DNA of 64,000 bases from Patescibacteria group bacterium (GTDB lineage Bacteria; Patescibacteriota; Patescibacteriia; 2-02-FULL-49-11): contig JBAZQN010000010.1 in the NCBI GenBank assembly GCA_041645165.1, positions 102 to 64,101 on the forward strand, read 5' to 3'. The position numbers and the translations under genes were made by a program. Under the pieces are notes generated by a model. It was not told the DNA's origin. It made no database searches and worked only from the letters and a program-made list of their open reading frames with translations. This document shows, in pieces, positions 3,642 to 44,822 of this stretch. Positions within the stretch are counted from its first letter, which is position 1. Every line of letters starts with the position of its first letter.

Positions 3642-4052
3642 TTCTTAACTTTGTAATAAACTTGCCCAGTATATCAACATCCAACGCCACACGTGACGCG
3701 GATGGTAGTGTACTCTTGTATGGTTGCGAACTTGTAGTGTTGGTGCACAATCTTGTGTGAAGATAACGTGTGGCGATCGGTGAGGGAGGCGTGAAGGTAC
3801 ATCTCGACGTTCTTACCAGACCCTTCTATCTCATCATTATTTACTACTCATAAGTTTATGCCTCCCTCTTGGATGTTGTATTATCTGGGCTTGATTATTG
3901 TGAGATAATTTCGTATCCTTTCCCTGCTGGTTCTTTAACGCGGAGAAATGGCTGAATGCCAGTCAAAGACATCCGGCGGGCGTTCATAGACGCCCGGGCG
4001 ACACGAAACCTCAAATTTTATATTGCGAGGCATCGCCCGAACAAATTATATG

Positions 4053-4138
4053 GAGAGGTGGCTGAGTGGCCGAAAGCGGCGCCGTGCTAAGGCGTTAGGG
4101 ATGCAAGTCCCTCGTGGGTTCGAATCCCACCCTCTCCG
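4053..4138 (+). tRNA. tRNA-Ser (anticodon GCU), long variable arm
   Basis: Cloverleaf readable. Acceptor GGAGAGG/CCTCTCC. Anticodon loop GTGCTAA. T-loop GGTTCGAATCC. Long extra arm. Confidence 0.8.
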
Positions 4139-4290
4139 AATGAGTTTACGAATGAGGAAAGAGTTCCGCAACTGCTTGCGTGGCGTGTGGAATGAGAAAG
4201 GTTTGGCGATGTGCGCGAAGCGGAATCTTTACCCCGATGCATATCGGGGCCACCCTCTCCGAATTTGAAAATTATAAAATTAAAACACAT

Positions 4291-4378
4291 GGAGGGGTCG
4301 CATAGCGGTTTAGTGCACCGGTCTTGAAAACCGGAGTACCGCAAGGTACCGTGAGTTCGAATCTCACCCCCTCCGCCA
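4291..4378 (+). tRNA. tRNA-Ser (anticodon UGA), long variable arm, CCA encoded
   Basis: Acceptor GGAGGGG/CCCCTCC. Anticodon stem CCGGT/ACCGG with loop CTTGAAA. T-loop GTTCGAATC. 3' GCCA. Confidence 0.8.
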
Positions 4379-4406
4379 GACTTCGCCAAGGCTACGTCTA
4401 GGCTAG
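4363..4406 (+). repeat. 44-bp perfect direct repeat (copy 1) that includes the 3' end of tRNA-Ser(UGA); att-like
   Basis: CTCACCCCCTCCGCCAGACTTCGCCAAGGCTACGTCTAGGCTAG recurs exactly at 4705-4748. The repeats bracket the GIY-YIG ORF. Confidence 0.7.
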
Positions 4407-4438
4407 CCTGAAGCCTTGAATAAAATAAATAAAGTGAT

Positions 4439-4699
4439 ATGTTTTATACTTACATACTCAAAGAGAAACAAAAACATCATTTCTATGTTGGTTCGTCGAA
4501 TGATCTGAATGAACGCCTTCAAGAACACGCACAAGGATTAACAAGATCAACAAGAGGAAGGGTGTGGAATCTGTATTGTTATTTCGCATTCCCAAGTGAA
4601 ACGCTTGCAAGAAAATTTGAACAATATTTAAAGACTGGATCTGGAAGAGCTTTTGCCAAACGGCATTTTGAATTTCAAGTTGACGAAGCTTTAGCGTAG
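4439..4699 (+). CDS. GIY-YIG nuclease family protein (COG2827-like small ORF)
   Basis: 86 aa. MFYTYILKEK..FYVGSSNDLNERLQEH. Lies between the 44-bp direct repeats. Confidence 0.7.
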   Translation: MFYTYILKEKQKHHFYVGSSNDLNERLQEHAQGLTRSTRGRVWNLYCYFAFPSETLARKFEQYLKTGSGRAFAKRHFEFQVDEALA

Positions 4700-4704
4700 T
4701 CACT

Positions 4705-4748
4705 CTCACCCCCTCCGCCAGACTTCGCCAAGGCTACGTCTAGGCTAG
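4705..4748 (+). repeat. 44-bp direct repeat (copy 2)
   Basis: Identical to 4363-4406. Confidence 0.7.
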
Positions 4749-4851
4749 TACCGTATCTCGTTAACGTCCCATAGTGATCCGCTTCCAGATTTTATTAAAA
4801 CTCAAGCTGAAAGGCGTATTTCCCGCTATGGGAGACCAAAGAGATACGGCA
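4749..4851. mobile_element. ~103-bp palindromic MITE-like insertion with ~25-bp terminal inverted repeats, nested in the repeat-2 flank; possible CTAG duplication
   Basis: TACCGTATCTCGTTAACGTCCCATAG ... CTATGGGAGACCAAAGAGATACGGCA. The flanking homology (CTAG CCTGAAGCCTTGAATAAA versus CTAG TCTGTAGCCTTGAATAAA) resumes after the insert. Confidence 0.5.
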
Positions 4852-4955
4852 CTAGTCTGTAGCCTTGAATAAATAAAGCGCATCCGCCAATGAGGGAACA
4901 TAACCTCATATGAAGAAGAAACATACGGATGAATCGAATATGGTATACTGGAAAC

Positions 4956-6167
4956 ATGAAAAAATTCATGTTTTTCTTTTTTATTTTTGCGGCTTTTTTT
5001 GACACAGGAACGCGCGCGGAAGCGGCAGAGACGCTCGCGGAGCGCTTACGCGGGCGCATTCTCCTGCAAGTCGAGAGCTATGGCAGAGCATGGTATGTGA
5101 ATCCGGCGGATGGGACGCGGTATTATCTCAAGGACGGAGAAACCGCGTTTGAACTTATGCGCTCATTCGGGCTGGGGATTACGGACCGCGATCTCGCAAA
5201 AATTCCCATTGCACGCGGGCAGGCGGCGGATCGCACATTGGCAGCCCGGCTCTCAGGGCGCATTCTCCTGCAGGTGGAAAAGCGCGGAGAAGCGTGGTAT
5301 GTGAACCCTTCAGATGGCCTGCGCTATTACCTGCAAGACGGAAATGCGGCGTATGCGCTCATGCGCCAATTTGGGCTGGGGATAAAAGACAAGGACTTGC
5401 GGAAGATTGAAATGAACGATGTGCAGATCGTGCAAGATACTACGTTTGATGACGTGGCGTATGTGAAACTCTCGGGAGGCGACATTGTCGCGGAAAAACA
5501 CCAAAACCAAATCCTCCCTCCTGCTTCGCTCACGAAACTCATGACCGCACTCGTGCTTATCGACCATGATTTTGATTTTCACCGGACGCTAACCCTAACC
5601 GCCGATGCCCTTGCCTTCCCCAAGGCGCTCGTGGGCGACGATACCACCAGCGAGATTGAACTTGAAGCGGGAGACCAGGTGCAGGCCGACGATCTGTTTA
5701 TCGCCATGCTGGTGGCGTCTTCCAACCAGGCGGCGATTGCCTTGGTGGATGCGAGCGGCATGACGCGCGAGGAGTTTATCGCCGCCATGAACGCGCGCGC
5801 GAAAGCCATGGGATTGACGCGCACCCGCTTCTTTGATCCGGCGGGGCTCGACGCGCATACCGTCACGACGCCCTATGAAATGGCGCTCATTGCGCAAGAG
5901 GCGTTTCTCGCGCCGGAAATCTTTGCGGCCGCGCGGCAAGATGCGCATACCATTACCATGCAGCAGCCGCCGTACCGTTCATTGTTTGTCACTGACCGCA
6001 ATACCACGCTGAAGCCCTACCATCCTGACGCAGTAAAAGTCGGATTTCTCATCGAAGCCCAGCGCTGCGTGGCGTTGATGAAGGACGGCGATATTGTCGT
6101 GATCATGCATGCGCGGAGCATGAGCGAGAGAAACGGCATACTGAACAAGCTGCTCAGCCGCGAATGA
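4956..6167 (+). CDS. Serine-type D-Ala-D-Ala carboxypeptidase (peptidase S11) with a duplicated N-terminal ~55-aa domain
   Basis: Signal peptide MKKFMFFFFIFAAFF. SxxK (SLTKLMTA). SSN. Tandem repeat RLxGRILLQVE..G.AWYVNP.DG.RYYL.DG twice. Confidence 0.75.
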   Translation: MKKFMFFFFIFAAFFDTGTRAEAAETLAERLRGRILLQVESYGRAWYVNPADGTRYYLKDGETAFELMRSFGLGITDRDLAKIPIARGQAADRTLAARLSGRILLQVEKRGEAWYVNPSDGLRYYLQDGNAAYALMRQFGLGIKDKDLRKIEMNDVQIVQDTTFDDVAYVKLSGGDIVAEKHQNQILPPASLTKLMTALVLIDHDFDFHRTLTLTADALAFPKALVGDDTTSEIELEAGDQVQADDLFIAMLVASSNQAAIALVDASGMTREEFIAAMNARAKAMGLTRTRFFDPAGLDAHTVTTPYEMALIAQEAFLAPEIFAAARQDAHTITMQQPPYRSLFVTDRNTTLKPYHPDAVKVGFLIEAQRCVALMKDGDIVVIMHARSMSERNGILNKLLSRE

Positions 6168-7150: not shown

Positions 7151-7245
7151 TAATTCTCAATGCATCAATATTTCAATGTTTGAAAATTGAATCATTGGAG
7201 CATTAATTGTAAATTGAGAATTGGAAATTGAAAATTTTATCATGT

Positions 7246-7317
7246 GCGCCCGTCGTTCAATGGATAGGACACAAGATTGCGGATCTTGTAATGCAGGTTC
7301 AATTCCTGCCGGGCGCA
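7246..7317 (+). tRNA. tRNA-Arg (anticodon GCG)
   Basis: Acceptor GCGCCCG/CGGGCGC. Anticodon stem CAAGA/TCTTG with loop TTGCGGA. T-loop GGTTCAATTCC. Confidence 0.7.
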
Positions 7318-7371
7318 AAAAGTGCGGGGTGAAATTCCCTGCAAGGACAACGATTGGCCTTATAATGATAG

Positions 7372-7427: not shown

Positions 7428-7531
7428 GTCATTCCTGATTTAATCAGGAATCCAGAAACAAAAATACGCAAAAACGTTCGTGGTGTCGGTTTTTATTTTC
7501 TTCTCTGGATTCCCGCTTTCGCGGGAATGAC
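7428..7531. mobile_element. ORF-less hairpin-bounded mini-element (GTCATTCC-hairpin-GGAATCCAGAAA ... TTCTCTGGATTCC-hairpin-GGGAATGAC)
   Basis: Same termini as the GIY-YIG-carrying elements at 15526-15897 and 19158-19612 and as the copy inside tsaC at 44401-44498. The left 25 bp recur at 56306-56330. Confidence 0.6.
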
Positions 7532-7559
7532 GACGGGGAAATCGAAAATGGAGTAGCAG

Positions 7560-10328
7560 TTGAGTATAGTTGATAATTTCATCCAACCGCCGCATACTGA
7601 TAACATGAATACCCTTTCTCTTTCTGATTCTCTTGCAGAACTCGGGCCCATGGGAAAACGGCTGAGCTCCCGTTTGAAGAGCCTCGGCATTATGAGCATC
7701 GAGGATCTGCTCTTTCACTATCCCTTCCGCTACGAGGACTGGTCTCGAGTTCTGCCTATCAAAAATCTCATCCCCGGCATGCAAGCCACGGTGAGCGCGA
7801 CGGTAAAAACTATTTCATTCCGTCCCGGGCGATGGAAGATAAAACCGCTCATTGAAGCGCTCCTTGAGGACCAGAACGGCGATCACATTCGCGCGGTATG
7901 GTTCAACGCGTCATACCTTATTAAAACCCTTACCCCGGGCACCGCGCTTCTGCTTTCCGGAAAAATTGACCGCTCAAAAGACGCGCTCCAACTCACCCAT
8001 CCCGTATGGGAAAAAAACACAACTCACGCCCCAATGCATACCGCGCGTATTATCCCGATTTATCATGCGACGAACACCATAAGCCAAAAACAGATCCGCT
8101 CGCTTATGGCAGTTTCTCTTCAAAATATCCCCTCCATCCCTGATCCGCTTCCCTCGTGGATAGCGTCAGGCGCCAAAATCATCCCTCTTGATCGCGCGAT
8201 CCGCGCCATCCATTTCCCGTCCACGTGGGCGGCTTTGAGTGCGGCGCAAACGCGGCTGAAATTCGACGAATTATTCCTTTTACAACTGCGCAGCGCGCTT
8301 GCCCGACAGGAGCTTACTGCGCTTAAAAGTACCCCCATTCCGTTCCATGAGACTCTTACGCGCACATTCGTTGCCCGTCTCCCTTTCAAGCTCACCACCG
8401 CACAGAGAAAAGCCGCCTGGGAAATTATTAAAGACCTCGGGAAGGGCAAGCCGATGAACCGCCTCCTGGAGGGCGATGTGGGATCGGGAAAGACCGTGGC
8501 CGCCGCCATTGCCGCCTTAAATGTGATTGCGAGCGGCCATCAGGTCGCCTATCTTGCGCCCACCGCCATACTCGCGGCACAGCAGTTCGCGACGTTTTGC
8601 CGTCTTTTTTCCGACACCCCCCTATGTCCCCCCCTTACGAAGGGGGGGAACGGGGGGGTCTTCACCATCGCGCTCATCACGCAGGGGGATATCAGGGTGA
8701 ATAAAATTCAAAGTTTCCCGCCTCAGCGGGATCCCGCATACCTTAGAGAATCAGATTCAAGGGGCGGGACAAAACCCAAAGTTCAAAATGAGAGAGGGTA
8801 TAAAAAAATTTCTAAGCAGGAGCTTGCAGTACTGTTAAGAAAAGGGAGAGTCGACATTTCGATTGGCACACATGCTTTACTTTCTGAACATATCCAATTT
8901 CAAAAACTGGCACTGGTCATCGTCGATGAACAGCACCGTTTCGGCGTCAACCAGAGAGCTGCGCTCCTGCGCAGATCAGCGCAGATAAAAACGCAGATAG
9001 ACGCAGATGCTGATGACTTTCTATATAAGGAATTGACATATCAAATAAGAGGAGCAGCATTTGAAGTGGCAAATAGCTTAGGCCTCGGTTTGAAAGAAAA
9101 TGTGTACCAAAAAGCACTTGAAGAATCATTAAAACAAAAAAGGCTCTTATATGAGCGAGAAAAATCAATTAATGTCTCATTCCACGATACGCGCGTGGGC
9201 AGCTTTAAGCCTGATTTTATTATTGACCAAAAGGTTATCGTAGAACTTAAAGCACTACCTTTTATTGGTAAAATTGAAGAAAAGCAACTCTGGAGTTACC
9301 TCAAAGGTTCAAATTACAAAGTTGCGTTACTCATCAATTTTGGCAACGATAAACTGGATATCAGAAGAATAATCTACGACACCGCGAGAGATAAAACGCC
9401 CCAACCGTCACCAAATCAGCATGCATCTGTGATTAATCAGCACATGTCTGCATCAAGTGATCTGCGACCATCTGCGTCTCATCTGCGTGAATCTGCGTAT
9501 GTGCCGCATCTGTTGTCCATGACCGCCACTCCCATTCCCCGTTCGCTTGCGCTGGTCGCCTACGCGGACCTAGATTTGTCAATCATCAATGAGCTGCCCA
9601 AAGGCCGCGCGCCGATTACCACTAAAATCATCCCGCCTGAACAACGGCAAGACGCGTATAATCTCATCAAGCAAGAGCTCTCATCCGGTCATCAAGCATT
9701 TATCATTTGCCCGCTCATTGATCCTTCCGATGCCTTAGGCGTGAAATCGGTGAAAGAGGAAGCAGAGCGCTTGAAACGAGAACACTTCCCCCATGTGAAT
9801 CTCGCCGCGCTCCATGGCCGCATGACGCCTGCGTCAAAAGACAAGATCATGGGCGCGTTTGCACAAGGAAGTATCCAGGTGCTGGTATCCACGCCAGTGG
9901 TCGAAGTGGGCATTGACGTGCCGAATGCCACGGTAATCCTTATAGAAAGCGCAGAACGGTTTGGGCTGGCGCAACTCCATCAGCTCCGCGGCCGGGTGGG
10001 AAGGAGCACCCACTCCTCGTGGTGCTTGCTCGCGACCGAAACAGAACAAGAGGAGGCGTTGAAACGCCTCCACGCGGCGGTCTCCTCCCGCGACGGCTTT
10101 GCGCTCGCCGAAATTGACCTAGAGATGCGCGGACCGGGAGAAGTGTACGGCACCCAGCAATCCGGCTTCCTCGACACTTTAAAAATCGCCAAGCTTACCG
10201 ATGTCATCATCCTTAAGCAATCAAAAGAGACGGTTGCCCGCCTCCTCCAAGAAGATCCCGCGCTTTCCCGCTACCCCTTACTCCAGCGCCGCCTCGCCGT
10301 ATTCGAGGAATCAGTGCATTTTGAATAG
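7560..10328 (+). CDS. recG: ATP-dependent DNA helicase RecG carrying three in-frame repeat or domain insertions
   Basis: Wedge N-terminus. Walker A GDVGSGKT. DEQH. TATPIPRS. RGRVGR. 922 aa against the ~700 typical of RecG, which is my recollection rather than a measured comparison. Confidence 0.85.
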   Translation: MSIVDNFIQPPHTDNMNTLSLSDSLAELGPMGKRLSSRLKSLGIMSIEDLLFHYPFRYEDWSRVLPIKNLIPGMQATVSATVKTISFRPGRWKIKPLIEALLEDQNGDHIRAVWFNASYLIKTLTPGTALLLSGKIDRSKDALQLTHPVWEKNTTHAPMHTARIIPIYHATNTISQKQIRSLMAVSLQNIPSIPDPLPSWIASGAKIIPLDRAIRAIHFPSTWAALSAAQTRLKFDELFLLQLRSALARQELTALKSTPIPFHETLTRTFVARLPFKLTTAQRKAAWEIIKDLGKGKPMNRLLEGDVGSGKTVAAAIAALNVIASGHQVAYLAPTAILAAQQFATFCRLFSDTPLCPPLTKGGNGGVFTIALITQGDIRVNKIQSFPPQRDPAYLRESDSRGGTKPKVQNERGYKKISKQELAVLLRKGRVDISIGTHALLSEHIQFQKLALVIVDEQHRFGVNQRAALLRRSAQIKTQIDADADDFLYKELTYQIRGAAFEVANSLGLGLKENVYQKALEESLKQKRLLYEREKSINVSFHDTRVGSFKPDFIIDQKVIVELKALPFIGKIEEKQLWSYLKGSNYKVALLINFGNDKLDIRRIIYDTARDKTPQPSPNQHASVINQHMSASSDLRPSASHLRESAYVPHLLSMTATPIPRSLALVAYADLDLSIINELPKGRAPITTKIIPPEQRQDAYNLIKQELSSGHQAFIICPLIDPSDALGVKSVKEEAERLKREHFPHVNLAALHGRMTPASKDKIMGAFAQGSIQVLVSTPVVEVGIDVPNATVILIESAERFGLAQLHQLRGRVGRSTHSSWCLLATETEQEEALKRLHAAVSSRDGFALAEIDLEMRGPGEVYGTQQSGFLDTLKIAKLTDVIILKQSKETVARLLQEDPALSRYPLLQRRLAVFEESVHFE
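8616..8661 (+). repeat. G/C-tract palindromic mini-insert inside recG, in frame (encodes ..PLCPPLTKGGNGG..)
   Basis: CACCCCCCCTATGTCCCCCCCTTACGAAGGGGGGGAACGGGGGGGTC. Same family at 15079-15117, 47275-47316 and 59489-59531. Confidence 0.7.
8715..8775 (+). repeat. CGGGATCCCG-core ~60-bp repeat unit inside recG, in frame
   Basis: TTCCCGCCTCAGCGGGATCCCGCATACCTTAGAGAATCAGATTCAAGGGGCGGGACAAAA. Same family at 15428-15490, 23123-23183 and 43921-44028. Confidence 0.65.
8958..9500 (+). mobile_element. In-frame insertion in recG encoding a GxxExxY (PD-(D/E)XK-like) domain, bounded by inverted heptamer arrays (CGCAGAT x4 on the left, ATCTGCG x4 on the right)
   Basis: Left array 8971-9009 and right array 9459-9497, period about 10-11 bp. 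The encoded segment LTYQIRGAAFEVANSLGLGLKENVYQKALEESL...VELKAL...LINFG has the hallmarks of the GxxExxY family and lies between the DEQH and TATPIPRS motifs. Confidence 0.6.
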
Positions 10329-10405: not shown

Positions 10406-11019
10406 TTACTTTAAACTAAACTCAATCAATGACTTTTTAACTTCGTTGTCATTAACTTTAAAGCCAGACAAATATACAACTTCTTCGCGGTAATCAACAT
10501 CATCAAAATAAGCAAGTTGATTTCGAAACATTCTTTCATTAAATTCACTTCCAAAAATCTGTCTAGTTTTTTTAATAATTTCCACGATTGAATGATAATC
10601 CCTCATGATGAAATAAAGATCCACGCAGTCTTTCCACTTGGCGCGCATGCCCAAAGCGTAAGCTTTCATGGCAGCTAATGTTAATAAATCAGGCATCTTA
10701 ATAATATCATCAAATTTTTTATTGTAATCTATCTTAAAATCATACTTGAAAAAAGTCATTTTTACCTTATTGACTATCAGATTAAATTGGTCTGTTTCAG
10801 CATAAAGTAATTTATCTATCTTTGCGAGTTGGCTTACTTTTCTCTTTATAACGGCGTTATTGAAACTCTTGTCAGTAAAAAGATCAAAATCAATAGAATG
10901 TCTGTGTCCAATATGCAATGCCACAGCAGTACCGCCAACTAAATCAAAATCCCGCGAAAAATATTTCACTACAGGCAGCAGTTTTATTTGCTCGATTGTT
11001 AATATCTCTTTATGCATAC
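10406..11019 (-). CDS. Nucleotidyltransferase, AbiEii/DUF1814-like
   Basis: LVGGTAVALHIGHRHSIDFDLF motif. The likely start, MHKEILTIEQ, overlaps the upstream ORF's stop (ATGCATAA). Confidence 0.5.
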
Positions 11020-11225
11020 CCAGTATATAAACTTCCCGCGCCAAACGCACGATTTTGACGAGTATAAGTTATTAATCTTAATTTTGTTGAAAAATTAAAA
11101 CCTTTATTATGTTCTTCCAATCGCTTCTTCAGGTTACGAGCAAACTCAATGTGCCTCTCGTCATCCTTCTTGCTTTCCAACACATAGACGCAGGAGAACA
11201 TACGGGAAGTTGTATTACTGGGCAT
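11010..11225 (-). CDS. Degenerate GIY-YIG-like small ORF
   Basis: MPSNTTSRMFSCVYVLESKKDDERHIEFARNLKKRLEEHNKG. GIY-YIG-like, but the YIG tyrosine and glycine are replaced. Confidence 0.3.
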   Translation of the reverse strand: MPSNTTSRMFSCVYVLESKKDDERHIEFARNLKKRLEEHNKGFNFSTKLRLITYTRQNRAFGAGSLYTGYA

Positions 11226-11472
11226 ATTTATTAAAATAAAGCCTGAAGTAATTTTTTGATTTTGGCAAATAATTGCACCTTTTCTGTTGCGACTTTTCCC
11301 TGAAAATCCGCGCCGCTTTTTTAATGCCCAAAATTTTAATAACTTTCTGCACATCGTCCCAGTCGCCGTAATTCAAAACCGCTTCCAGAATAGTCGCGTC
11401 TGAAAGTCCGTCATAGTTCTTTGTTGACCACACCAGGTATGGCTTTTTCTTTATATAATTTTGCAGCGTCAT
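11215..11472 (-). CDS. Hypothetical small protein
   Basis: 86-aa C-terminal portion (MTLQNYIKKKPYLVW...) of the 169-aa ORF. The upstream part of that ORF is translation of REP elements. Confidence 0.25.
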   Translation of the reverse strand: MTLQNYIKKKPYLVWSTKNYDGLSDATILEAVLNYGDWDDVQKVIKILGIKKAARIFREKSQQKRCNYLPKSKNYFRLYFNKYAQ

Positions 11473-15525: not shown

Positions 15526-15897
15526 GTCATCCCGGGCTTGACCCGGGATCCAGAAATAACAATAACACTAAAAATCATCAGAAAGATCTTTCCATCCTGG
15601 ATTTACCTCCTCAATCAAACGCAATTTCCACGCCCGTTTCCACCGTTTCATTTGTTTTTCCCTCGTGATTGCCGCATAGATATCAGAAAATTCTTCATAG
15701 TACACCAGTGTATGTACGTGATATTGCCGGGTAAATCCTGGTACCGCTCCCACCTTATGCTCATCTACTCTGCGTCTAAGGTCGTTCGGTACTCCAACGT
15801 ACAAAGTTCCGTTTTTCTGACTCGCCATGATGTACACGTAATAACTCTGCATGATTTTTGTTTATTTTTTCTGGATTCCTGCCTGCGCAGGAATGAC
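15526..15897. mobile_element. Hairpin-bounded element carrying a GIY-YIG gene
   Basis: Left end GTCATCCCGGGCTTGACCCGGGATCCAGAAA. Right end TTTCTGGATTCCTGCCTGCGCAGGAATGAC. Same termini as the ORF-less copies at 7428-7531 and 44401-44498. Confidence 0.6.
15568..15852 (-). CDS. GIY-YIG nuclease family protein
   Basis: 94 aa, YVYIMASQKNGTLYVGVPNDLRRRVDEH. About 80% identical to the 19200-19484 paralog. Confidence 0.7.
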   Translation of the reverse strand: MQSYYVYIMASQKNGTLYVGVPNDLRRRVDEHKVGAVPGFTRQYHVHTLVYYEEFSDIYAAITREKQMKRWKRAWKLRLIEEVNPGWKDLSDDF

Positions 15898-19157: not shown

Positions 19158-19612
19158 GTCATCCCCGACTAGGTCGGGGATCCAGAAAAAACAATAACAT
19201 TAAAAATCATCAGAAAGATCTTTCCATCCTGGATTTACCTCCTCAATCAAACGCAATTTCCACATACGTTTCCATTTCTTTAATTGTTTCTCTCGCTGGA
19301 TGGCAATTTTTATATCAGTGTATTCCTCATAGTAGACCAGCAAATGTATGTGATATTGTTGGGTAAATCCCGGTATCAGTCCATTCTTATGCTCATCTGC
19401 TCTGCGTCTAAGATCGTTGGTTACCCCAATGTACAACGTCCCATTTTTCTGGCTTGCCATGATGTACACATAGTAACTCTGCATGATTTTTGTTTATTTT
19501 TTCTGGATTCCTGCTGGAGTTTATCCCGTACCGCGATACGGGGCAGGAATGACGAGATAGGGTGGATTCCTGTAGGAGTTTACCTCGTACTGCGATACGG
19601 GGCAGGAATGAC
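19158..19612. mobile_element. Hairpin-bounded element carrying a GIY-YIG gene; right terminus duplicated
   Basis: Left end GTCATCCCCGACTAGGTCGGGGATCCAGAAAAAA. Right end CTGGATTCCTG...GGGGCAGGAATGAC occurs twice (19503-19553, 19562-19612). Confidence 0.55.
19200..19484 (-). CDS. GIY-YIG nuclease family protein
   Basis: 94 aa. Paralog of 15568-15852. Confidence 0.7.
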   Translation of the reverse strand: MQSYYVYIMASQKNGTLYIGVTNDLRRRADEHKNGLIPGFTQQYHIHLLVYYEEYTDIKIAIQREKQLKKWKRMWKLRLIEEVNPGWKDLSDDF

Positions 19613-44093: not shown

Positions 44094-44822
44094 TCATTGA
44101 ACATTTAGTCTGAGTGACCCTACTCGCAATACCCTCACTGAACCATCAGTATTTACTTGAACGACAGTTGAAGGCTTCCTCCTCAGCAGTGTTCCCCCAT
44201 CAATGACGAGGTCTGGTTTAAATTTTTTTCCGCTGAATGCGCGCACTGTCGCTGATGCGCTATAGAGCGCTTGCGTGCCGGAAACATTCGCGCTTGTGGC
44301 GATGAGGGGTTTGTCTAATCCACAAACGAGCTTGTGGGCGATTGGGTGCGGCGAGATGCGGAGGGAGAGTGTAGGGATAGATCTCGGTTCACTATTCACC
44401 GTCATCCCGGGCTTGACCCGGGATCCAGAAACAAAAACAAACAAACCCGCGCGATTTTTGTTTTTTCTTGTCTGGATTCCCGCCTGCGCGGGAATGACAG
44501 TTGTTTGAACGTATGAAGATGCGCGTTTCAACGGCAACACCAAAGATAACGGCCCCGGCCAATAGTGCCGTGCGAGCCGACGGGCAACAGGAGAAAATAC
44601 TACGTAACGCTCTGCCATTGACCTTGAAGCAACGATGACTGACAGCGGCTTTCCCTGCGGCCTTTGTTTGATGCGCCTTACTTTCATATGAACCTTCGGG
44701 TTCGTCCAATCACCGCCCAGACCATACGAAGTTTCGGTGGGAAAGGCCACCACGCCACCCTCACGGAGCACTCTTAATGCCACGCGAAGTAGTATCGGGT
44801 CATTAACTGAAATTACCTTCAT
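44094..44822 (-). CDS. tsaC: L-threonylcarbamoyladenylate synthase (TsaC/YrdC) interrupted in frame by a ~98-bp hairpin-bounded mini-element
   Basis: PTETSYGLG. HYWPGPLSLVLP. ATSANVSG. Inserted segment TTVIPAQAGIQTRKNKNRAGLFVFVSGSRVKPGMTV is encoded by the element at 44401-44498. Confidence 0.75.
   Translation of the reverse strand: MKVISVNDPILLRVALRVLREGGVVAFPTETSYGLGGDWTNPKVHMKVRRIKQRPQGKPLSVIVASRSMAERYVVFSPVARRLARHYWPGPLSLVLPLKRASSYVQTTVIPAQAGIQTRKNKNRAGLFVFVSGSRVKPGMTVNSEPRSIPTLSLRISPHPIAHKLVCGLDKPLIATSANVSGTQALYSASATVRAFSGKKFKPDLVIDGGTLLRRKPSTVVQVNTDGSVRVLRVGSLRLNVQ
44401..44498. mobile_element. ORF-less hairpin-bounded mini-element inserted in frame in tsaC
   Basis: GTCATCCCGGGCTTGACCCGGGATCCAGAAAC...TCTGGATTCCCGCCTGCGCGGGAATGAC. 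Confidence 0.65.

Follow-up and report, generated by a model that had tools for sequence, protein, structure and literature searches.

The subject of this study is a small cassette that lies behind a serine tRNA gene in a 64 000-nucleotide stretch (the window) of contig JBAZQN010000010.1, from assembly GCA_041645165.1 of a Patescibacteria group bacterium. The tRNA-Ser(UGA) gene (4291–4378, + strand; ARAGORN; Rfam tRNA model, 60.3 bits), the target of the insertion, is intact and encodes its CCA. A perfect direct repeat begins inside this gene, positions 4362–4406 recurring at 4704–4748 (repeat finder; blastn-short against the window, E 6e-20), and is made up of 17 nt of the tRNA, from the last T-loop base to CCA, and 28 nt beyond it. 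The 297 nt that separate the two copies hold a single credible open reading frame (ORF; 4439–4699, + strand), preceded by a short A+T-rich leader (4403–4438, + strand); its G+C content is approximately 35–39%, against approximately 55% in the flanks. ARAGORN and Rfam, the repeat finder and Pfam agree with a first-pass annotation, made from the sequence alone, which had placed a GIY-YIG-only cassette between duplicated ends at the 3′ end of this tRNA. The perfect repeat of 44 bp which it reported is real, although one base longer (45 nt), and it was right that no integrase is present: the ORF list contains none in the unit or nearby, the GIY-YIG gene being the sole ORF between the repeats and the sole gene of the 342-bp cassette unit. 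Since no sigma-70-like promoter (nor an intrinsic terminator) was found in 3900–5000, transcription by read-through from the tRNA promoter is plausible.

The gene encodes a single-domain GIY-YIG nuclease of 86 amino acids with the C-terminal motif FEQYLKTGSGRAFAKRHF. Pfam PF01541 covers residues 1–69 (E 1.4e-14; 54.6 bits, cutoff 22.6); no other Pfam family passes its curated cutoff, and none of the transposase classes DDE, HUH, Ser, Tyr or Cas1 is matched. The two tyrosines and the arginine, histidine and glutamate of the GIY-YIG catalytic core are all present; across 26 family members Y5, Y16, G18, H30 and E61 do not vary, and conservation of R26 is at least 90%. A profile search of the PDB returned the UPF0213 protein 1zg2 (E 4.5e-11) and SLX1 (7cq2, E 5e-9), with I-TevI only at E 0.14, and by sequence profiles the protein, which has no auxiliary domain, fits the prokaryotic stand-alone Slx1-like/UPF0213 branch. 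A further profile search gave 4218 cluster representatives at E ≤ 1e-10, the best-scoring 150 of which are all 78–166 amino acids in length. No homologue was found by tblastn in phage and plasmid collections, and carriage by a phage or plasmid was rejected on this absence of matches. The nearest homologue of the ORF (70% identity) comes from locus L001, in another Patescibacteria metagenome-assembled genome.

The cassette ends in inverted hairpins, which had gone unnoticed in the first-pass annotation. The left hairpin, F (4376–4402, + strand), reads CCAGAC-TTC-GCCAAGGC-TAC-GTCT(A)GG: an outer stem starting from the tRNA CCA (CCA-NNN / N′N′N′-TGG) encloses TTC, a variable inner hairpin closed by GC/GC, and T(A/T)C. 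R1, a covariance model built from an alignment of F, recovered this copy (36.9 bits, E 2.6e-7) and a second one at 4718–4744 (+ strand, 36.9 bits), which we interpret as the beginning of an older cassette remnant without an ORF; these were its only significant matches in the 64 kb. A strict regular expression had been too stringent to find even the window copy. The right hairpin, R, appears as GACGAAGCTTTAGCGTAGTC on the + strand (4682–4701, − strand), overlaps the stop codon and is matched only weakly by R1 (11.9 bits, E 1.3), but agrees with the reverse complement of F at 16 of 20 positions; terminal inverted repeats are thus present. R abuts the second tRNA-end copy, and pairs across it with the second copy of F (dG −10.2, z −2.2). 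An R-like inverted motif likewise abuts a tRNA-end copy in loci L001, L005, L007 (twice), L014, L018, L034, L104, L109 and L141, and its position at the stop codon recurs in many loci.

Comparison of F across 24 loci from many phyla, in an alignment selected partly by pairing, showed that 93% of cells are paired and that 10 of the 11 pairs vary on both sides. The covariation score was 0.434 against 0.124 after shuffling (equalled by 0 of 500 shuffles), and slid controls collapsed. A test of the F halves by position only found all 14 triplets complementary, with seven pair types, where permutations gave a mean of 5.0 and a maximum of 11. Over 163 related loci R1 produced 256 matches at E ≤ 0.1, grouped just up- or downstream of the ORFs and on both strands. 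No Rfam family was found for F or for the spacer between tRNA and ORF (window, E ≤ 1; 20 loci, gathering scores; L011, E ≤ 5).

The extent of the cassette can be read from L001, where the ORF sits behind tRNA-Ser(GCU) and not tRNA-Ser(UGA). The 27 nt behind that tRNA are identical at 26 positions to the F stretch of the window (CAGACTTCGCCAAGGCT[A/C]CGTCTAG) and the stop-codon region at 20 of 21, the ORF DNA between the two hairpins being far more diverged, and the unit is directly followed by a 15-nt copy of the local tRNA-Ser(GCU) end. Because the same motif follows a different tRNA in L001, the 28 nt that had been annotated as downstream flank within the repeat are not host sequence: they are the cassette's own hairpin F, found elsewhere behind 26 tRNA species. 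Only the 17-nt part is therefore derived from the tRNA. Its first copy (4362–4378, + strand) comprises the last T-loop base, the 3′ T-stem strand, the 3′ acceptor strand, the discriminator and CCA; its second, displaced copy (4704–4720, + strand) resembles a target duplication, and a direct repeat of the tRNA 3′ end is present at both cassette junctions. From this alignment the 45-nt repeat is best read as two things, 17 nt of duplicated tRNA end and the F of a second unit that lacks an ORF, and not as a single 44-bp att core. The tRNA-Ser(UGA) of L001 itself has neither F nor ORF, which supplies part of the empty-site comparison that had been suggested; a filled and empty pair from a very close relative was not obtained. 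The locus with the best orthologue of the peptidase encoded downstream in the window (L165, the nearest relative found; 70% amino acid identity) differs, carrying upstream of the peptidase a different tRNA-Ser, an ORF-less insert of 117 nt and an 18-nt tRNA-end copy, and three further peptidase-orthologue loci are not syntenic.

Relatives were collected as 165 loci from genomes and metagenomes. Upstream sequence of 400 nt or more was available for 140 non-redundant ORFs. Of these, 87 (62%) are preceded within 400 nt by a tRNA on the same strand (median gap, 123 nt) and not one by a tRNA on the opposite strand; a tRNA within 400 nt downstream was found for just 6 of 149 ORFs. The upstream partners belong to 26 tRNA species, and with thousands of related genes the placement at tRNA ends extends across many bacterial phyla. 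F starts at CCA in most parsed loci; if the gene does not encode CCA, the outer stem of F overlaps the final bases of the acceptor. The units measure 322–396 bp. In 15 of 88 loci the 110 nt that follow the ORF contain an exact copy, 12 nt or longer, of the 3′ end of the local tRNA, whereas the permuted control gave 0.6%. These copies start 12–18 nt before the tRNA end and reach to within 0–2 nt of it (ends as called by ARAGORN), except in L142, whose copy starts 20 nt before the end and stops 8 nt short. The duplication length of 12–18 nt goes with tRNA positions and not with a fixed number, the equivalent positions being duplicated in 14 loci besides the window. The search for other tRNA 3′-end duplications that the first-pass annotation had proposed thus yielded these 14 cassette loci and, around ORF-less inserts, 7 of 31 tRNAs without a GIY-YIG gene. 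When proteins were clustered at 70% identity or more, 9 of 16 clusters spanned more than one tRNA species and one spanned seven.

The target is not always a tRNA. Loci L169–L174 (approximately 1230–1500) contain identical genes for a 79-amino-acid GIY-YIG protein behind a transfer-messenger RNA (tmRNA) gene, whose 3′ end (GACTCCCGCCACCTCCACCA) is duplicated; F, R and the ORF are joined to the distal copy, and the sequence downstream varies among contigs.

Recurrence also bears on whether the structure is an assembly artefact, with a metagenome mis-join having created the 45-nt repeat and the tandem arrangement. The window is indeed a metagenome-assembled fragment, and the protein was seen on one contig only. 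We nevertheless regard an artefact as highly improbable, because the design of tRNA end, hairpin, ORF, inverted hairpin and tRNA-end copy recurs in 14 further loci; the same architecture comes from many independent assemblies and sources, and unique sequence lies between and after the two repeat copies.

Integrases that target tRNA genes reportedly leave, as their classic signature, a repeat from the T-loop to the 3′ end, and the duplication has this geometry; to that extent its description as att-site-like was apt. On that view a tyrosine recombinase supplied in trans would have inserted, at the T-loop sublocation, either a very small integrative cassette or what is left of a larger island, with the repeats as attL and attR and the GIY-YIG gene as cargo. 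Similar duplications surround ORF-less inserts at tRNAs that have no GIY-YIG gene, including the tRNA-Ser(GCU) of the window and L165; R and F, with the tRNA-end copy as spacer between them, make up an inverted-repeat/spacer/inverted-repeat structure; and a Phage_integrase gene stands beside tandem cassettes in L003. We consider this explanation unlikely all the same, given that no integrase lies in the unit or nearby, that just 3 of the 165 loci have a homologue of the L003 enzyme, and that F and R abut the repeats exactly in units of just 322–396 bp. Moreover, near-identical hairpins and ORFs stand behind different tRNA species, with the copy always matching the local tRNA, and such switching among close relatives disfavours a sequence-matched attP/attB pair, which could achieve it only by producing chimeric tRNAs. 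An integrase is not required to explain the pattern, although one acting in trans could have contributed.

The tandem cassettes of L003 (1096–3364) have a period of 369 nt and three spacer copies and adjoin the Phage_integrase gene; no tRNA was detected in this 6.2-kb locus. The count of 3 in 165 loci led us to reject a general linkage to integrases, as far as homologues of the L003 enzyme are concerned.

Downstream of the second tRNA-end copy the homology to the first cassette continues, interrupted by a palindromic insert of 103 nt (4749–4851, no strand assigned; identified by folding and repeats) in the leader of the older remnant, much as the first-pass annotation had described. CTAG stands on both sides of it (4745–4748 and 4852–4855), in keeping with the duplication that had been suspected, and the fold that had been called for gives one long imperfect hairpin (DNA dG −20.2 kcal/mol, z −4.8, with 0 of 200 shuffles as good) whose arms are 79% complementary over 33 nt. 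The label of a miniature inverted-repeat transposable element (MITE) is plausible for this element, of which a single copy was seen, a search of the window having returned no second one. Behind it the homology resumes (4852–4873 against 4403–4424, 20 of 22 nt); the span 4852–4889 (+ strand) holds the rest of the older leader, which ends 6 nt short of the expected ATG, and then TCCGCCA (4883–4889), which may be left over from an earlier tRNA-end copy.

Other loci carry comparable stacks. L007 has two complete units in tandem; in L141 a 46-nt perfect repeat consists of 16 nt of the tRNA-Gln end, F and CTATGC; in L144 a different F variant stands behind the tRNA-end copy; and in L169 an ORF-less insert of approximately 100 nt adjoins the tmRNA, with F, R and the ORF on the distal tmRNA-end copy. 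The arrangement of these stacks fits successive insertions at the functional 3′ end, each of which would have displaced the earlier units together with an end copy.

The fact that F begins at CCA and pairs with it raises a further possibility, namely that the nuclease and F form a resident, non-mobile host module, co-transcribed with tRNAs, in which F acts at the level of RNA, in 3′ trailer processing or in regulation, and the repeat results from local tandem duplication or slippage. Co-transcription is suggested by the lack of any promoter or terminator found, gene placement is syntenic in Bradyrhizobium (behind tRNA-Ala GGC), the window repeat extends through the leader, and a role connected with RNA is hinted at by an Slx1-like domain known to be fused to TrmH (PMC1564403). 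This explanation seems to us improbable. The tRNA partners differ between close relatives, the corresponding tRNA occurs in relatives without the gene, and the ORF has a low G+C content; an inverted R with a local tRNA-end copy is present in 15 independent loci, and in L144 the F variant stacked behind the copy is a different one. SsnA, a characterised relative, is also inactive on RNA (PMC11893778).

Linkage to tRNAs, covariation of F, duplication of the tRNA end, switching of tRNA partners and stacking all support a cassette, and with moderate confidence we favour the explanation that the locus is a minimal nuclease–hairpin cassette which targets the 3′ ends of tRNA genes (and of tmRNA in one group of relatives). 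Its unit would run from the tRNA CCA through hairpin F, a short leader, the gene for a GIY-YIG protein of approximately 80 amino acids and the inverted R to the tRNA-end copy, and the tRNA would remain intact because the unit is followed by a copy of its last 13–18 nt, which starts at the T-loop/T-stem junction. The newer, intact unit beside tRNA-Ser(UGA) would correspond to 4376–4701 and the older one to 4718–4880, the latter keeping a second F and leader but having lost its ORF and gained the 103-nt palindromic element; the repeat would be 45 nt long, with homology running on beyond it, because the displaced tRNA-end copy is still joined to the older F and leader. We infer from these patterns that the cassette is mobile. 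A model for its movement can be drawn by analogy with the Ssn nucleases, single-domain GIY-YIG proteins of 94 amino acids that bind an oriented hairpin (NTS/SRM) as single-stranded DNA (ssDNA) only (Chenal et al., 2025; PMC11893778). The cassette nuclease may recognise folded ssDNA formed by F, by R and possibly by the T-arm, and may cut beside F/R or beside the T-arm, a candidate cut site being the junction of T-loop and T-stem at the left edge of the duplication. Host repair or recombination would then finish the insertion, and every new insertion would arrive next to the tRNA.

Several observations weigh against this explanation. A hydrolytic GIY-YIG nuclease cannot by itself join DNA, and the variable length of the duplication (12–18 nt, or 45–46 nt with F) is unlike the product of a fixed staggered cut. 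Only 17% of the tRNA-linked loci have the duplication, and in many proteobacterial and acidobacterial loci, which look vertically inherited, F and R both lie upstream of the ORF and there is none. Conversely, tRNA-end duplications occur at 7 of 31 tRNAs that lack the gene and, because they surround ORF-less inserts without a GIY-YIG gene, other trans-acting machinery could make them. The repeat ends near the start codon both in the window and in L141, which decay of an older unit does not predict. Finally, the short F of the window is thermodynamically unremarkable on its own (z −0.15), its support being comparative. The wider claim that these units constitute a new class of autonomous mobile element is tentative, and we hold it as possible rather than probable: such an element would have a GIY-YIG nuclease of approximately 80 amino acids as its sole protein, which would recognise the folded hairpin ends and the tRNA T-arm/3′ end as ssDNA, and would insert site-specifically after tRNA or tmRNA genes with a 13–18-nt duplication, the ORF-less inserts being its non-autonomous derivatives.

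ORF-less inserts of 50–250 nt, lying between copies of the 3′ end of the local tRNA, were observed in L165 (2825–2975), L051 (1674–1874), L149, L078, L058 and L066, in each case with a small hairpin just before the second tRNA-end copy. L165 and L051 have a right-end motif in common (GGGGTCGCGA-hairpin-TTGTGAC), and the insert of L149 ends in an R-like GCGACGAA plus a hairpin. These inserts may be non-autonomous relatives of the cassette or a separate type of element. In L080 (2755–2931) F and an inverted R without an ORF stand behind tRNA-Gly(UCC), directly downstream of a GIY-YIG cassette at a tRNA-Tyr. ARAGORN placed two further tRNAs in the window, tRNA-Ser(GCU) at 4051–4139 and tRNA-Arg(GCG) at 7245–7318, and Rfam concurs on both serine tRNAs. 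The 3′ end of tRNA-Ser(GCU) plus 3 nt (CCACCCTCTCCGAAT, 4127–4141) is repeated 123 nt downstream (4250–4264), and the intervening insert (4142–4249; 108 nt) is ORF-less and ends in the perfect hairpin CCCCGATGCATATCGGGG. That this insert is a decayed GIY-YIG gene was rejected, the family hidden Markov model giving nothing in any of the six frames.

Two other nuclease-related genes of the window were noted. The RecG gene (7560–10328) has a PD-(D/E)XK domain inserted in the middle of the helicase core (residues 490–604; Pfam PDDEXK_3, E 8.5e-33). At 11010–11354 (− strand) a truncated N-terminal GIY-YIG fragment (family profile, 26 bits) is fused into an ORF of 114 amino acids, which overlaps an AbiEii-like toxin gene (10406–11050, − strand) and has no tRNA or F motif nearby.

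The descriptive claims on the locus are well supported. Single-domain GIY-YIG proteins are abundant, and their biology is almost unknown outside SsnA of Neisseria; one clade of them is now linked to a defined target in the genome, namely the 3′ ends of tRNA and tmRNA genes, and to a cognate hairpin that starts at CCA. This provides concrete substrates for biochemistry (the tRNA end with F, and R) and a testable model for the spread of a nuclease-only gene, and it offers a possible explanation for the small tRNA-end duplications that are common in genomes of the Candidate Phyla Radiation (CPR)/Patescibacteria. Should the nuclease prove to be guided by hairpins as Ssn is, ssDNA-cutting tools would gain a second, orthogonal specificity. 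Our literature search, from which most subscription journals were absent, found no report that links GIY-YIG genes with a CCA-anchored hairpin to the 3′ ends of tRNAs.

Among known systems, casposons have terminal inverted repeats and a target duplication of approximately 14–15 bp, and some families insert at the 3′ ends of tRNA genes; they are 8–20 kb in size and driven by a Cas1 casposase, whereas the cassette has no Cas1. IS200/IS605 and REP/RAYT elements rely on HUH Y1 transposases that form covalent intermediates, and leave no target duplication, which sets them apart from a cassette whose sole protein is a hydrolytic GIY-YIG nuclease and which has a 13–18-nt duplication. What the cassette shares with them is a very small size and subterminal hairpins, together with non-autonomous hairpin derivatives and what would be recognition as folded ssDNA. 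These elements are also brought up in PMC11893778.

Free-standing GIY-YIG homing endonucleases offer another parallel in being selfish GIY-YIG genes associated with tRNA genes: SegB of phage T4 cuts within the T4 tRNA gene region and spreads via host or phage recombination (PMC2330249). However, Seg proteins and I-TevI have approximately 200–250 amino acids and a DNA-binding domain, unlike the 86-amino-acid cassette protein, which scores 25.6 bits with TIGR01453 against a cutoff of 56.05, and homing leaves neither a flanking duplication nor hairpin ends. With the tyrosine-integrase elements of tRNA and tmRNA genes the cassette has in common its insertion at the 3′ end, a repeat from about the T-loop to the 3′ end, an intact tRNA, and stacked arrays with the newest unit beside the tRNA. 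It differs from them in having no integrase, a size of approximately 340 bp with one nuclease gene, inverted hairpins as ends, and close relatives that use many tRNA species.

The nearest known system is the Ssn/NTS nuclease–hairpin pair, which we regard as the closest characterised analogue. Both proteins are single-domain GIY-YIG nucleases of approximately 80–95 amino acids from the Slx1-like/UPF0213 branch, and both genes are flanked by an oriented hairpin, which is often inverted between the two sides; Ssn genes are typically hairpin-flanked in an architecture that has been called identical to that of insertion sequences, and Ssn cuts a few nucleotides upstream of the hairpin (PMC11893778). 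The window itself encodes two Ssn-type GIY-YIG proteins of 94 amino acids (15568–15852 and 19200–19484, both − strand), each gene flanked by inverted NTS/SRM-type hairpins (spans 15526–15897 and 19158–19612). Two orphan pairs of such hairpins have no adjacent nuclease gene (7428–7453 with 7505–7532, and 44401–44426 with 44474–44498), and the one at 7505–7532 (− strand), although it belongs to a genome of Patescibacteria, is an exact match to the NTS consensus of Neisseria. Matches to the SRM (HGTCWY...RNCYNB)/NTS patterns fall in the window at 7428–7531, 15526–15897, 19158–19612 and 44401–44498, and none lies in 4291–4860; F as a dispersed NTS-like repeat was rejected, since only its two cassette copies are significant in the 64 kb. 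The two systems differ in hairpin consensus, in the C-terminal motif and probably the clade of the protein, and in the dispersal of the hairpin, F not being dispersed in the window. The family profile gives the 86-amino-acid protein 126 bits against 39 bits for the Ssn-like proteins of the window, and the latter, taken as a proxy for cd10448 membership, align over the N-terminal 32–66 residues or so only (41% identity); these profiles and alignments point to the cassette protein as a member of a probable sister clade of Ssn. Linkage to the tRNA 3′ end and its duplication likewise belong to the cassette, the word 'tRNA' occurring 0 times in PMC11893778. What is new here relative to Ssn-type nuclease–hairpin pairs is a specific target, the tRNA end, together with new ends.

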